Shown: positions 48,001-54,000 of the stretch, piece by piece
Position numbering within the stretch: the stretch's first letter is position 1
How the letters are laid out: each line of letters starts with the position of its first letter
Origin: Escherichia coli
GTDB taxonomy: Bacteria; Pseudomonadota; Gammaproteobacteria; Enterobacterales; Enterobacteriaceae
Strand: one strand, 5' to 3'
Assembly: GCF_048403405.1 (NCBI RefSeq)
Contig: NZ_CP183129.1
Length of the DNA stretch: 64,000 nucleotides
Program-made: the position numbers

Positions 48001-51000
48001 ACCTGCTGGGTAACTTCATCCCGTTCCTGAAAAAAACCGACTCTCTGGTTGCTGGTATCATCGGTACTGCGGGCTGTGTGGGTCTGTGGGGCTACCTGCT
48101 GTATCAGGGCGTGGTCGATCCGCTGGGCGGCGTTAAGAGCCTGTGGCCGCTGTTCGGTATCTCCAACCAGATGCTGGCAGCCGTGGCGCTGGTACTGGGT
48201 ACCGTTGTGCTGATTAAGATGAAGCGCACCCAATACATCTGGGTAACTGTTGTTCCGGCTGTATGGCTGCTTATCTGCACCACCTGGGCGCTGGGTCTGA
48301 AACTGTTCAGTACCAACCCGCAGATGGAAGGCTTCTTCTACATGGCAAGCCAGTACAAAGAGAAGATTGCTAACGGTACTGACCTGACGGCGCAGCAGAT
48401 TGCCAACATGAACCACATCGTTGTGAACAACTACACCAACGCAGGCCTGAGTATTCTGTTCCTGATTGTGGTGTACAGCATCATCTTCTACGGTTTCAAA
48501 ACTTGGCTTGCGGTGCGTAACAGCGACAAACGTACTGACAAAGAAACACCGTACGTTCCAATCCCGGAAGGCGGCGTGAAGATCTCTTCGCACCACTAAC
48601 CGTGTTTAGCCCCGCTTCGGCGGGGCTTTGTTCTTATCAGAGTGAACTATGTTTGGTAACTTAGGACAGGCAAAAAAATATCTCGGCCAGGCGGCGAAGA
48701 TGTTGATTGGCATTCCAGACTACGACAACTACGTCGAGCATATGAAGACCAACCATCCCGACAAGCCGTACATGAGCTATGAAGAATTCTTCCGCGAACG
48801 CCAGAATGCACGCTACGGCGGCGATGGTAAAGGCGGTATGCGCTGTTGTTAATGGAGAGAGCATGAACCCGATTGCAGTTACCCTACTCACCGGTTTTTT
48901 AGGCGCGGGCAAAACCACCCTGCTGCGCCATATTCTTAACGAACAACACGGCTACAAGATTGCCGTGATTGAAAACGAATTCGGCGAAGTCTCCGTTGAT
49001 GATCAACTGATTGGCGACCGCGCCACGCAGATCAAAACGCTGACCAACGGCTGCATCTGCTGTTCGCGCTCCAACGAGCTGGAAGACGCACTACTCGACC
49101 TGCTGGATAATCTCGACAAGGGCAATATTCAGTTCGACCGTCTGGTCATTGAATGCACCGGCATGGCCGATCCCGGCCCGATTATTCAGACCTTTTTCTC
49201 CCATGAGATTTTATGCCAGCGCTACCTGCTGGACGGGGTGATTGCGCTGGTGGATGCGGTACATGCCGATGAGCAGATGAACCAGTTCACCATCGCCCAG
49301 TCCCAGGTTGGCTACGCCGACCGTATTCTGCTGACTAAAACCGACGTCGCAGGCGAAGCAGAGAAACTGCGTGAACGCCTGGCGCGCATCAACGCCCGTG
49401 CACCGGTCTACACCGTCACCCACGGCGATATCGACCTGGGCCTGCTATTCAACACCAACGGTTTTATGCTGGAAGAGAACGTGGTCAGCACCAAGCCACG
49501 TTTCCACTTTATCGCGGACAAACAAAACGATATTTCGTCGATTGTGGTGGAACTGGATTACCCGGTAGATATCAGCGAAGTTTCCCGGGTGATGGAAAAC
49601 CTGCTGCTGGAATCGGCGGATAAACTGCTGCGTTACAAAGGGATGCTGTGGATTGACGGCGAACCTAACCGCCTGCTGTTCCAGGGCGTCCAGCGCCTCT
49701 ACAGCGCCGACTGGGACAGGCCATGGGGCGATGAAACACCGCATAGCACGATGGTGTTTATCGGGATTCAGTTGCCGGAGGATGAGATTCGGGCGGCGTT
49801 TGCGGGACTCAAAAAGTAACCAGCCCTCCAACATCACAATACCTGAGACTTTATCACCCTCATATTCCTCCAGAATATGAGGGCTTTCGGGCTTAATTAT
49901 CTCTGAACGTGCAACACTTCCTGCGACTCCTTATGCGCCTCCACATCCTGCTTCGTTAACCAGAGCGACTTACGGCCAAAATTTTCGTACATTTTCAGCT
50001 GATCTTCATAGTGCTTATCAACTGTTCCATCGGGAGCAATAAACCCACTCTGACCGGGTGCGACCACATCCCAGGCAAGCACAGGACGATCGCTTGTCGT
50101 TGGTGAGAAAACAATCATATCGTTTTCTGTTCCACGGTTTTGATACTCCGCCTGATGACGCGTTTCTTCCGCTGCGGCCTGCGGTACACCAAAGAAATTA
50201 TTTGCCCGGAACGTTAAGGCCATTGCAGGTGTTTTCCAGTTACTCACATTATTGCCATAGCGTTTGGAAAGAGTCTCCCAGGTATCTTCCAGCGCAGCCA
50301 ACACAACCTCCTGCTGTGGTTTCCCAGCAAACAGATCAACCGCCTGTGGGATTGGTGATTTGTCTCCCTGCACCGCCTCATACAAAATTTTTGCTCCAAC
50401 ACTTATATTCAGCGAACCAGTTGGGCCGTCCTGGGTTGTTTCGTAGCCACTGGCGCTGTACCACTTATCAAATGGCATAGGTACGGCAGCCACTACGGTA
50501 CGCTTCAACATACTGGTCAGCCAAACGTTCAGGATGGCAGAGCCTGGCTGCTGCCAGGTTTTACCATCATCATTAAGCAAATTGATGCCATCCCAACGTG
50601 TTAATGTTTCTACCAACTGACGACGCGGATCGCTCTGTGTCAAACCAGATGTCGCTGCTTGCAGAGTAGGTAAAAAAAGCCTCAGGTTAAGATCCTGACG
50701 ACTGGTTTGGCGAATAACATCCCATGCCTGATCAGCAGTTAAGCGTGGCTTTTGCTCAAGCAGTCGGTCGATCTCCGTAACGCGATCTGCACCACCCCAC
50801 AAAAAGGCAAACAGATCTGAAGCGGGATAATCTTTTTGGGGAGAATTGTTCCAGTTAGCAATATATCCCGACTGGGGGTTATACACCTTAGGGTTCATTT
50901 CAAAAGGCAATAGCCCTTTCCAGTCCCATTTTCCCGTACCAGGAACGGGTAATCGCGGATCATGGCCTGATTGACGATCTGGATAAGCACCAGTATGAAC

Positions 51001-54000
51001 ATAACCAATATTGCCGTTTACATCAGCATAGTACCAGTTGATGGTCAGTGCTTGTTTCGCTGCCTGCTGTGTCCACTCCTGCCAATTTTTGGCCTTCATC
51101 TGATGAGTCCAGGCCAGCAAAGACGCCACCTCTTTACCATCCCATGCGCGGGATTTAGCGTAAGCCGTTTGTGTCGTCTGGTCAGTTTGGAGAATGTTGC
51201 CATGCACCGTACGCCAGACAGTAAAGGTCTCTGCCTGACCATTTTTCACCGTAATGGTTTCCTCACGGCTTAACATTTTCACCCACTTACCATTATGCAA
51301 GTAGTAGCCTGGTTTCTCTGCCGACAGCCGTTCAGCAAAAATATCGACATCATCGCCGAAACCTGCCGTTGATCCCCAGGAAATCACACCATTATGACCA
51401 AAAACCAGCCCAGGATAGGCAAATGGTGTATTGCCAGTGACATCATAACCAGCACCGTGCAGACCAATACCATAAGTATACGCAGGCGCATACCAGCCAA
51501 ACTGCGGACCATTTACCATGATTGCTTTCGCATCCTGGGCTTTGCTTTTGCCGATCACCCACATATTGCTGGTCGTTGGATACCCCGCCAGACCATTGGC
51601 ACCACCCTGTGCAAATTGTGCAGCAATAGTTTCCCGGTTCTTCCCTGCTGTTAACGCCAGCAGTGCGCCATCCGCCCCTTTTGCTGGTCGGTCAAGCATT
51701 GGTGCAGGTAAATCGTAGCGTGGCAACAGAGCTGCTGTTTGCGAGTTTTGCTGATTAAATTTAAGTGGGTAGTTACTCTCTTGTACGGCAATAGTGGTTG
51801 GCGCTGATGGGTTTACCAGCCATTTCAACTGATTAAATACCGCCATGCCTTGTGATACACCATATTTATCTTTTAAAGCCGTTAGCAGTGCCAGATTATC
51901 AATTTCGCTAGTGCTATCAGAGAAGCGGTTTGCCATGGTGCCCACAAATATCATCGCGACATCAAACGGTTCCCAGCGCTTAGGAGTAAAGCCAAATGTA
52001 TTAAACTGTTTTGGTAAGAGCGTCTCTGGATTGGTATTTACCTTATCAATCCAGGCATTCATTCCATCAGCGTAGCCTTGCAGAATGGACATATCCTCTG
52101 GGGAAAGGGCAGCAATTTGCGCCCGGATAGCATCCGGCCAGTAGTTACGACGGATATCTTTATCAAATTTCACAAAATCTTTGCCAAGCACTTCCGCGAC
52201 AGTCCCTTGAGTACTGCGACGTGCCATTTCCATCTGAAAAAGGCGATCTTGTGCTACTACATAGCCATAGCCATAAAATAGGTGCCATGTATCATTGGCA
52301 TAAATATGCGGCATGCCGTATTCATCGCGAACAATCTTTATCTCACTTGACGACTGCTCAGCCAGTGCAGGTAAGCTCCAATAATACATCAGGGAAGCAG
52401 TAACACAGTTCACGATCATACGATTTCTATTTTTCATTGTATCCTCTGGCAGGTGTATAATTAGCGAATTGATACTAGCAACGAAGCTTCGGTTATCTAT
52501 TTGCAGAGAATTGTTTCATTATGAACTGTGAGCGCGATAACTAATTTTTGATACAAAAATTCCATTAATGTGATCTAAAACGAATCGCTTTATTCACCGC
52601 TGATGATTTTGTTCTATTCCTTTTTGTGACAGATCCCCCGGACGCATAGATGATGACCCCCAGAGAGACAGCTCAGGTCATTATCTGTATGTAAATCAGA
52701 AAAATATGTTGTAAACGACTTTTATGGTTGGATTTTGTAGCAATTTTGAATGCAGACAGGCAGCATTTGCCAACACGCCGCCCATAGTTCACTCCACATC
52801 CTCCCTGCGTAACCCAATATCCCTCAACCGTTCATCACTCATCTGCTGTAACACTCGTCGGGTCTGCATTTGCCGCCGCCAACGCCTCACCGCATGCCAG
52901 AGTTGCACAAGTCTGATAAACGGCGTTTTGGCTTTGTTTTCGTGAAATTCCATCTGCTGCCTCCTCATCTTTCAGAGGCTTCATCATCCGCCTTCTGGCA
53001 GTTCACAATACAGATGCAAATATTAGTTTTATTTAACATACAGACAGGTTAAAACAGCATCTGCATCCGGTTTTTTAGCCTCATCTGTACCGGTTTTTCT
53101 TTCTGTATGGGCCAAATAAGGAATACAGCATGACGCGTTATCAACATCTGGCGACTCTACTTGCCGAGCGGATTGAGCAAGGGCTGTATCGTCACGGGGA
53201 GAAATTGCCGTCGGTGCGCAGCTTAAGTCAGGAGCACGGCGTCAGCATCAGCACCGTGCAACAGGCGTATCAGACGCTGGAAACGATGAGGCTCATCACT
53301 CCGCAGCCGCGTTCGGGTTATTTTGTCGCACAACGTAAAGCCCAGCCGCCAGTACCGCCAATGACGCGTCCGGTGCAGCGCCCGGTGGAAATAACCCAGT
53401 GGGATCAGGTGCTGGACATGCTGGAGGCGCATAGCGACAGTTCCATTGTCCCGTTAAGCAAAAGCACGCCGGATGTCGAAACGCCCAGCCTGAAACCGCT
53501 CTGGCGGGAGCTAAGCCGGGTGGTGCAGCATAATCTGCAAACCGTTCTCGGTTATGACTTGTTAGCCGGTCAGCGAGTGTTGCGGGAGCAGATTGCCCGC
53601 CTGATGCTCGACAGTGGCTCGGTGGTCACCGCCGATGACATCATCATCACCAGCGGCTGCCATAACTCGATGTCGCTGGCGTTAATGGCGGTGTGTAAAC
53701 CGGGCGATATTGTCGCGGTCGAATCCCCCTGTTATTACGGTTCGATGCAGATGCTGCGTGGCATGGGCGTGAAAGTGATTGAAATCCCAACCGATCCAGA
53801 AACAGGCATCAGCGTTGAAGCGCTGGAACTGGCTCTGGAACAGTGGCCGATTAAAGGCATCATTCTGGTGCCAAACTGTAATAATCCGCTGGGATTTATT
53901 ATGCCGGACGCGCGCAAACGGGCTGTTCTCTCTCTCGCTCAGCGTCATGATATTGTGATTTTTGAAGATGATGTCTACGGCGAACTGGCGACGGAGTATC

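Follow-up and report, generated by a model that had tools for sequence, protein, structure and literature searches.

The E. coli immigration control region (ICR) is defined as the variable chromosomal segment bounded by yjiA and yjiS (or yjiR/yjiO) (PMC3874153; a preprint). The same locus, described as yjiA-yjiO, is defense hotspot #36 of Hochhauser et al. In K-12 MG1655, the interval read from yjiS to yjiA carries yjiT, yjiV', mcrC, mcrB, symE/symR, hsdS, hsdM, hsdR and mrr, so that ~16 kb is devoted to type I and type IV restriction genes and a toxin-antitoxin pair. Three other sampled strains have varied defense systems at the same place, as the original prediction had stated. The E16 slot contains a toxin-antitoxin system, type IB hsd, symE and GmrSD; that of O157:H7 contains HNH/DUF262, type IB hsd, symE and GmrSD; and that of PMV-1 contains mrr, type IA hsd, symE and GmrSD.

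Not all described occupants are defense genes. A 'penicillinase' is named as non-defense cargo of the locus in a 2025 review (PMC12707154), and E. coli W (ATCC 9637/ATCC 11105 lineage) carries pac, the penicillin G acylase gene, in place of the immigration control region (Archer et al. 2011, PMC3032704). The presence of this gene, here called pga, at the ICR position is therefore already known, having been published for E. coli W since 2011, and it is not peculiar to the DNA studied here. What goes beyond published fact is the frequency of this allele, its exclusivity with respect to defense genes, its linkage to the hpa cluster and its apparent spread by homologous recombination.

Comparison with the K-12 and E. 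coli W loci

The window, a 64,000-nucleotide stretch of E. coli DNA (contig NZ_CP183129.1), has the gene order hpaBC, btsT, yjiX, yjiA, pga, yjiS, yjiR, which is inverted relative to K-12. It had been proposed that pga occupies the slot of the hsd/mcr/mrr genes. In an alignment to K-12, pga falls precisely within the yjiA-yjiS interval and not at a locus separate from the hsd region. The slot is a variable segment between the framework genes yjiA and yjiS, and thus fits the definition of the ICR and of hotspot #36. Chromosomal position, framework genes (yjiA and yjiS/yjiR) and junction points are the same as in K-12. However, the two inserts have no common sequence, and where K-12 has its restriction genes, the window has a 3-kb insert with a single gene, for a catabolic enzyme. 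With no PADLOC-recognized defense gene in the slot, the window sits at the ICR locus without having a functional ICR.

The match to E. coli W is much closer. Its order of hpa, btsT, yjiX, yjiA, pga, yjiS, yjiR, rpn and mdtM is the same as that of the window, and the two variable segments differ at 1 of 2,969 nucleotides. This difference, a C/T polymorphism at position 52562 whose C is private to the window, falls in the pga promoter region, and the encoded acylases are consequently the same protein. The accessions for the acylase, YjiA and YjiS of E. coli W also occur in strain 4621, whose sequence over these genes equals that of the window. The genomic backgrounds are different: the flanks of the window are 1.5-3% divergent from those of the B1-type strain M8, whose acylase, YjiA and YjiS accessions equal those of W. 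Strains YDC107 and TUM1226 match the window strain at 100%.

Boundaries of the variable segment

The variable segment spans 2,969 bp (49820-52788); adding the allele-specific final 13 nt of yjiA extends it to 49807-52788. It consists of pga, its upstream DNA and a terminator-containing spacer (Table 1). The original prediction had drawn the interval as 49820-53129. Its start is correct, but yjiS and the yjiS-yjiR intergenic region belong to the conserved framework, which moves the true end to 52788.

Table 1. Coordinates of the pga segment, its framework genes and nearby features in the window
Feature	Position	Strand	Basis or remark
hpa cluster (hpaR, hpaGEDFHI, hpaXA, hpaBC), 4-hydroxyphenylacetate catabolism	34936-46056		between tsr and btsT
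yjiA (GTPase), left framework gene	48863-49819	+	gene calls, alignment
Near-identity tract versus strain M8, 3.84 kb	49508-53350		1 mismatch
Spacer between convergent yjiA and pga	49820-49896		77 bp, stop codon to stop codon
pga (pac), penicillin G acylase precursor, 846 aa	49897-52437	-	structure matches, translation
pga upstream regulatory DNA, 351 bp	52438-52788	-	38.7% G+C
yjiS (DUF1127, 54 aa), right framework gene	52789-52953	-	gene calls, alignment
yjiR (MocR/GntR-aminotransferase fusion regulator), framework gene	53130-54542	+	gene calls
Intact Rpn-family recombination-promoting nuclease, rpnD position	54786-55742	-	just past yjiR

On the left, homology to K-12, E16 and O157 stops at 49806, 13 nt short of the yjiA stop codon. 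The 3' end of yjiA (49807-49819) is specific to the pga allele, where YjiA terminates in GLKK rather than the GLRK found in four of four defense alleles examined. On the right, homology returns precisely with the stop codon of yjiS (52789) in alleles that retain yjiS. PMV-1 is homologous at the left end alone because it lacks both yjiS and yjiR. The junction points are identical across all alleles compared and lie at the 3' ends of both framework genes.

An inverted-repeat search of the yjiA-pga spacer recovers a hairpin at 49857-49883 whose 11-bp stem is perfectly paired and whose loop is 5 nt long. The predicted fold has a minimum free energy of -23.3 kcal/mol (z = -4.5), a value matched by 0 of 200 shuffled sequences, and this hairpin is probably a bidirectional terminator.

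Two further features lie outside the slot. The Rpn nuclease gene, a member of a family with reported anti-phage activity (PMC10327210), is 1.6 kb away, beyond yjiS and yjiR, and is not in the variable segment. At its left end the window carries a prophage adjoining prfC, and strain ST38 is among the close matches of this prophage region.

The acylase gene and its upstream DNA

Penicillin G acylase (PGA) is a periplasmic Ntn-hydrolase whose precursor cleaves itself into alpha and beta chains, with the catalytic serine at the N terminus of beta. By hydrolyzing amides and esters, the enzyme frees phenylacetate and its hydroxylated analogues, and these products enter the paa and hpa pathways. Judged by full-length similarity and precursor architecture, the predicted product of the window gene is a penicillin amidase family Ntn-hydrolase. 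Its parts are a signal peptide (residues 1-26), an alpha chain (27-235), a 54-residue spacer (236-289) like that present in the precursor structure 1e3a, and a beta chain (290-846). In a PDB chain search, the alpha chain aligns to 1ai4_A across its full 209 residues (E = 9e-140), and the beta chain matches 1gk9_B/1ai4_B over 557 of 557 residues with ~1,300 bits. The catalytic residue is Ser290, which aligns to residue 1 of the beta chain within the motif TT/SNMW. The single NCBIfam match, to the acylase PvdQ, is weak and partial (E = 1.9e-14; 52.5 bits versus a cut-off of 950).

The window enzyme would be expected to hydrolyze penicillin G and phenylacetyl amides, since E. coli W, the industrial source of PGA (PMC3032704), shares its PGA accession (WP_000797400.1) with strain 4621, whose pga is identical to that of the window.

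PaaX and CRP are the reported regulators of pga (review, PMC9493321). A CRP-like match with 2 mismatches (52527-52542) and a PaaX-box-like match with 3 mismatches (52577-52591) occur upstream of the gene. Such matches are not above shuffled-sequence frequency window-wide, and the two sites are only compatible with the published control. The pga promoter was missed by a generic sigma-70 scan.

Searches for defense genes and mobility functions

The slot had been described as holding only pga with about 350 bp of upstream DNA, and this is borne out by the ORF survey, which finds no other substantial ORF, and by the measured length of 351 bp. The accompanying claim that restriction, modification and other defense genes are missing also stands. 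PADLOC profiles gave no match to PGA, YjiS or five antisense or intergenic ORFs of at least 60 aa in 49820-53129, and remnants of hsd, mcr or mrr sought in 49820-52788 are not present. Weak PADLOC matches of YjiR to SspA/DndA were rejected because they reflect only a shared PLP-enzyme fold. An Rfam scan with a permissive E-value returned only noise, in the form of three archaeal snoRNA matches within yjiS that fall below threshold.

Recombination scars in the flanks, a suggested check, were not found in a search of 49600-53200. Apart from the terminator hairpin, direct and inverted repeats in this region are chance-level matches. Repeat D3 (23 nt, 78%), the strongest direct repeat close to a junction, maps 120 bp into pga and likewise does not exceed chance. 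No integrase, transposase, insertion sequence (IS) or att-like duplication was detected at the slot or its junctions. With no recombinase, terminal repeats or att site, the slot is not a mobile genomic island, transposon or integrative element.

Exchange of the segment among strains

Pairwise comparisons with four strains define a recombination tract around the slot. The window differs from M8 by 1 mismatch over this tract, versus 15-26 mismatches per kb in the flanking DNA. The right-hand crossover is near 53350, within yjiR. On this pattern of divergence, the tract reads as the footprint of homologous recombination that exchanged one allele for another. How segments are replaced at the ICR was called still unknown in a 2013 review (PMC3874153). 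Strain E16, which lacks pga, was rejected as an isogenic comparator: although yjiA is 99.5% identical between it and the window, divergence in the remaining flanks amounts to 1-3%.

Distribution in E. coli and linkage to hpa

Among 5,426 complete E. coli genomes, yjiA-pga-yjiS-yjiR is contiguous in 1,067 (~20%), and the full segment is found in 1,067 of the 1,074 genomes with pga DNA of any kind; these two counts of 1,067 were made separately and not paired genome by genome. Those partial or interrupted cases that were inspected proved to be IS1203/IS3 insertions, in some instances accompanied by an internal deletion. One of them, SD134209, was considered as a hybrid of pga and defense genes and rejected on these grounds, as it carries both an IS1203/IS3 insertion and an internal deletion. 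Defense genes beside pga in the slot were never seen among the pga-bearing genomes.

The hpa cluster lies ~3.8-4 kb from pga, and no more than 3 of the 1,074 genomes that carry pga lack it. The genes from hpaBC through pga are contiguous in 1,071 genomes, and 2,065 genomes in total are hpa-positive. Physical linkage over 4 kb, together with clonal structure, could account for this association with no role for selection.

The same locus in other genera

In six Kluyvera loci, Lelliottia and Silvania, a gene whose PGA product is 80-87% identical is flanked by yjiS or yjiN on one side and by yjiA-yjiX-btsT on the other. In Kluyvera spp., Lelliottia nimipressuralis and Silvania confinis, as in the window, pga is convergent with yjiA and sits at the yjiA-proximal end of the interval. 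The likeness is less complete for Leclercia adecarboxylata, where pga and flanks were matched in separate searches, and for an Enterobacter metagenome-assembled genome (MAG), whose contig stops inside pga. Both are consistent with the same placement, and pga probably resides at this locus in them as well.

In E. coli, pga is alone in the interval. In contrast, the K. cryocrescens and Lelliottia intervals also carry an aldehyde dehydrogenase, transporters, regulators and a putative outer-membrane protein, and Lelliottia additionally has xanthosine phosphorylase. The view of the locus as a defense hotspot that holds a metabolic cargo gene is accurate for the window. It does not extend to a hotspot devoted purely to defense, because pga and other metabolic genes occur together in these two sister-genus loci, which were examined in detail.

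The Kluyvera subclades of YjiA and BtsT reappear in the matrix of PGA identities. Synonymous divergence (pS) of pga is 0.72-0.77, which is saturated, versus 0.43-0.66 for the flanking genes, and orthologues have 58% G+C versus 48% for E. coli pga. Vertical descent is not separable from ancient transfer because of this saturation and the difference in G+C. Since orthologues occupy the same locus in several Enterobacteriaceae genera, pga appears to be an old resident there.

Origin of the pga allele

We consider it highly probable (roughly 85%) that yjiA-yjiS is a multi-allelic, replaceable locus and that the window carries its 'pga allele', an old resident that spreads by homologous recombination and excludes defense cassettes. 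This allele would be a 3-kb segment with pga as its sole gene, equipped with its own promoter and terminator. It would move within E. coli through recombination in the conserved flanks, with no need for a mobile element, and would exclude restriction and defense cassettes, as it does in every genome examined. Long residence is suggested by orthologues that share its place and orientation in several genera and that seem to diverge in step with their flanks.

A more specific version of this history can be offered only tentatively. The gene may be a long-standing, possibly ancestral occupant that persists in E. coli as a balanced alternative to defense cassettes, locked to hpa in a haplotype for scavenging aromatic acids, with ICR-encoded restriction given up in exchange for catabolism. 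If so, about one-fifth of E. coli would lack ICR restriction by choice of allele and not by decay.

The gene might instead have been captured recently from another genus such as Kluyvera, with the hotspot taking foreign cargo much as it takes defense cassettes. The G+C content of the segment (46.9%, with 38.7% upstream) is below that of the flanks (53-55%), pga is at least 99% identical in 1,056 of 1,074 genomes, and the closest orthologues are in Kluyvera. However, Kluyvera pga has just 78% nucleotide identity to the E. coli gene with saturated synonymous sites, and at 58% G+C it is not the compositional source. The E. coli gene also exists as at least three haplotypes 0.5-1% apart, which is ordinary within-species diversity, and the repeat search of 49600-53200 found no mobility genes or scars. 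Recent capture is therefore unlikely.

Still less credible is an origin by deletion, in which an ancestor carried pga beside a defense cluster and subsequently lost the defense genes. The additional genes in the Kluyvera and Lelliottia loci imply shrinkage at some point in the history of the locus, and an hsdR remnant has been reported there in E. coli C (PMC3874153). Against this, no pga-bearing genome has adjoining defense genes, 1,067 of 1,074 retain contiguity with the two flanks, the inspected exceptions being IS insertions, the slot is free of restriction gene remnants, and the junctions of the pga allele are the same as those of every other allele.

Kluyvera PGA is reported to cleave acyl-homoserine lactones, which, like the partial PvdQ match, would favor a role for PGA in conflict. 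That PGA is an acyl-homoserine-lactone or antibiotic-modifying acylase serving competition between bacteria, with a non-accidental place in a 'multi-conflict island', as YjiA-bounded islands with anti-bacterial and virulence cargo beside defense genes in Serratia and other Enterobacteria might suggest (bioRxiv 10.1101/2024.01.28.577318), is the least plausible explanation, because PaaX/CRP regulation (PMC9493321) and complete hpa linkage point to carbon scavenging and because pga has decayed by frameshift or IS insertion in some lineages.

Implications

Carriers of the pga allele have none of the restriction systems encoded at this locus, as is reported for E. coli W. The practical value of this observation is small. 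It is relevant, nonetheless, to searches for defense genes that rely on hotspot occupancy and to predictions of the restriction barriers of individual strains. The recombination tract in the window illustrates how alleles may be swapped at the locus without mobile-element machinery. At the best-known 'defense island' of E. coli, approximately one-fifth of complete genomes have a gene for a catabolic enzyme in place of a restriction system.

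Gene content of the pga slot

In the window, the interval between yjiA and yjiS is 2,969 bp long and carries one gene, pga, within a gene order that is the reverse of the K-12 orientation. The same interval of K-12 MG1655 spans ~16 kb and contains yjiT, yjiV', mcrC, mcrB, symE/symR, hsdS, hsdM, hsdR and mrr. The original prediction that pga stands in place of the K-12 hsd/mcr/mrr region is therefore borne out. Its claim that no restriction, modification or defence gene is present also holds, as PADLOC profiles give zero matches for PGA, YjiS and five antisense or intergenic ORFs of the slot region. 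This region likewise lacks credible Rfam matches and transposase or integrase ORFs. The predicted span, 49820-53129, correctly takes in the pga insert (49820-52788), but its end coordinate is too distant because it includes yjiS and the yjiS-yjiR spacer, which belong to the conserved framework.

Features of the pga neighbourhood and aldehyde dehydrogenase genes beside pga in two other genera
Feature	Sequence	Coordinates	Strand	Position relative to pga
hpaB	window	43964-45526	+	
hpaC	window	45544-46056	+	
btsT	window	46449-48599	+	
yjiX	window	48649-48852	+	
yjiA	window	48863-49819	+	
pga, 846-codon ORF	window	49897-52437	-	
yjiS	window	52789-52953	-	
yjiR	window	53130-54542	+	
Rpn-family nuclease gene	window	54786-55742	-	
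Aldehyde dehydrogenase, 456 aa	Kluyvera locus L011	10676-12046		downstream
Aldehyde dehydrogenase, 456 aa	Lelliottia locus L015	6414-7784		upstream

The pga ORF encodes the precursor of penicillin G acylase in its canonical E. coli form. Residues 27-235 (alpha) and 290-846 (beta) are matched over their full length by PDB chains of this enzyme, with beta starting at Ser290 (...YPTT/SNMW...), and the 54-residue spacer is retained. Across yjiA, pga and yjiS, strain 4621 shows no difference from the window; it shares PGA accession WP_000797400.1 with the industrial strain E. coli W, whose whole 2,969-bp segment is 1 base away from that of the window.

Between yjiA and pga, which are convergent, lie 77 bp that include a hairpin (perfect 11-bp stem, 5-nt loop) folding far more stably than shuffled sequence (z = -4.5). 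This is probably a terminator common to both genes. Upstream of pga are 351 bp of AT-rich DNA (38.7% G+C) with one CRP-like and one PaaX-box-like match, statistically indistinguishable from background. These candidate sites would be consistent with regulation of pga by CRP and PaaX as described in the literature (review PMC9493321). Position 52562, in the promoter region between the two matches, is a C private to the window; all three pga-positive strains compared (M8, C325 and EC21Z-097) have T.

Junctions and allelic exchange

Homology to K-12 ends at 49806 and picks up again at 52789, precisely at the stop codon of yjiS. E16 and O157:H7 give identical end points; PMV-1, in which yjiS and yjiR are missing, has only the left one in common. 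These breakpoints place pga in the yjiA-yjiS (hsd) interval. The insert carries the terminal 13 nt of yjiA along with it. In all pga alleles examined, yjiA ends in ...GGACTCAAAAAGTAA (GLKK-stop), whereas K-12, E16, O157 and PMV-1 have ...GGGTTGAGGAAGTAA (GLRK-stop), beyond which the DNA differs in each. Consistent with these nucleotides belonging to the insert, matches of a yjiX-yjiA probe to pga-less genomes stop 13 nt short of the probe end. A suggested search for recombination scars at the flanks found none, and repeats close to the junctions are no better than chance.

M8 and the window differ at one site in 49508-53350. This 3.84-kb tract begins 310 bp before the end of yjiA, runs through the insert and yjiS, and stops 220 bp into yjiR; its sole mismatch is position 52562. 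Directly beyond it, the two strains differ by 15-26 sites per kb. Such a pattern is the footprint of an allele swapped by homologous recombination, its crossovers lying within the framework genes. The pga haplotypes of two other strains are 5.4 and 9.8 sites per kb from that of the window, which indicates ordinary within-species diversity rather than a single very recent arrival.

Frequency, exclusivity and decay

Among 5,426 complete E. coli genomes, 1,067 have yjiX-yjiA-pga-yjiS-yjiR in one contiguous block, matching a 6-kb probe over >=80% of its length. Any part of the pga segment occurs in 1,074 genomes, and at least 80% of it in 1,067. In this E. coli search no genome was found with pga and defence genes in one yjiA-yjiS interval, so the pga and defence alleles act as alternatives that exclude each other.

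The pga gene is decaying in some lineages. Inspected partial or interrupted cases are IS1203/IS3 insertions, one with an additional internal deletion; such an insertion breaks pga in SD134209 and two further records. In EC21Z-097, a 1-nt insertion (window equivalent ~50790) truncates the frameshifted pseudogene after residue 560. Among 40 evenly sampled records, seven match over 2,970 nt, the length seen in EC21Z-097, the one strain in which the frameshift was checked. Selection on pga is thus not uniform.

Linkage to hpa

Between tsr and btsT lies an inserted, complete 4-hydroxyphenylacetate catabolic (hpa) cluster (34936-46056), which K-12, O157:H7 and PMV-1 lack. A probe whose 80% coverage is reachable only with both hpaBC and pga is satisfied in 1,071 genomes, and hpa-btsT is contiguous in 2,065 of 5,426. 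All but at most three of the 1,074 pga-bearing genomes are hpa-positive, compared to 38% of all genomes; independence predicts ~409. With just ~3.8 kb separating the loci and phylogenetic structure among the genomes, this co-occurrence is an association that does not prove selection. It agrees with the usual picture of PGA as a scavenger of phenylacetyl-type compounds for aromatic-acid catabolism (PMC9493321).

pga in other genera

In a scan of one genome per species, PGA orthologues with 80-87% identity are found at six Kluyvera loci and in Lelliottia nimipressuralis, Silvania confinis, Leclercia adecarboxylata and an Enterobacter MAG. As in E. coli, pga of Kluyvera, Lelliottia and Silvania is convergent with yjiA and flanked by yjiS-yjiR (or yjiN) and yjiA-yjiX-btsT. 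In Leclercia the flanking genes occupy equivalent positions, with a pga match under the cut-off of the synteny search, and the Enterobacter contig ends within pga. The fetched loci of Buttiauxella (72%) and Alcaligenes (40%) contain no flanking genes.

Apart from pga, the interval of K. cryocrescens and that of Lelliottia encode an aldehyde dehydrogenase, LysE- or MFS-type transporters, AraC or LysR regulators and a putative outer-membrane protein, plus xanthosine phosphorylase in Lelliottia, and no defence genes. The top NCBIfam match of the dehydrogenase, succinate-semialdehyde dehydrogenase, is under cut-off. Its presence beside pga in both genera hints at a conserved small catabolic module from which E. 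coli kept pga alone. The PGA identity matrix recovers the Kluyvera subclades of YjiA and BtsT. Synonymous sites are saturated between E. coli and the other genera, and pga G+C is 48% in E. coli and 58% in the orthologues. The relationship is therefore old, and vertical descent is inseparable from ancient transfer.

Neighbouring variable features

Window positions 1-17056 are the integrase-proximal part of a lambdoid-type prophage, with a tyrosine integrase ORF (15603-16826, -), KilA-N, YfdQ and DUF968 genes named from the annotation of 100%-identical copies in YDC107 and TUM1226. Its chromosomal junction (17056/17057) lies ~65 nt within the 5' end of prfC. At least 80% of this part is found in only 60 of 5,426 genomes, and the otherwise near-identical strain 4621 lacks it.

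At the rpnD position, followed by mdtM and yjiN, the window has an intact gene (318 aa) for an Rpn-family recombination-promoting nuclease; K-12, C325 and the sampled O157:H7 have a pseudogene instead. Members of this family are reported to be gene-within-gene toxin-antitoxin anti-phage systems (PMC10327210), which makes this a possible defence gene just past the 'empty' slot; no PADLOC v2 model matches it. With the yjiR-rpn spacer, ~54543-55742 shows 53-83 mismatches per kb between strains, the regional maximum, compared to 10-30 elsewhere. This fits the locus as a long-recognised 'bastion of polymorphism'. A further variable spot (~61380 to 63450) carries, after yjiL and a DUF3343 gene, a gene for a pentapeptide-repeat protein, annotated in O157 as an EspX6-like type III effector; K-12-like and B1-type strains have yjiK-yjiJ there.

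Relation to earlier work

The central finding is already published: in E. coli W, the immigration control region is replaced by pac (Archer et al., PMC3032704). Loenen and Raleigh describe alternative yjiS-yjiA segments and give the replacement mechanism as unknown (PMC3874153), and Hochhauser et al. number yjiA-yjiO as hotspot 36. A 2025 review (PMC12707154) names a 'penicillinase' among the non-defence cargo of the locus. The observation is confirmed here, and its interpretation as a metabolic cargo gene in a defence-island hotspot is supported. The additions are quantitative: the frequency of the pga allele, its exclusivity, its linkage to hpa, the exact common junctions, a single recombination tract, and the synteny and co-divergence seen in sister genera.
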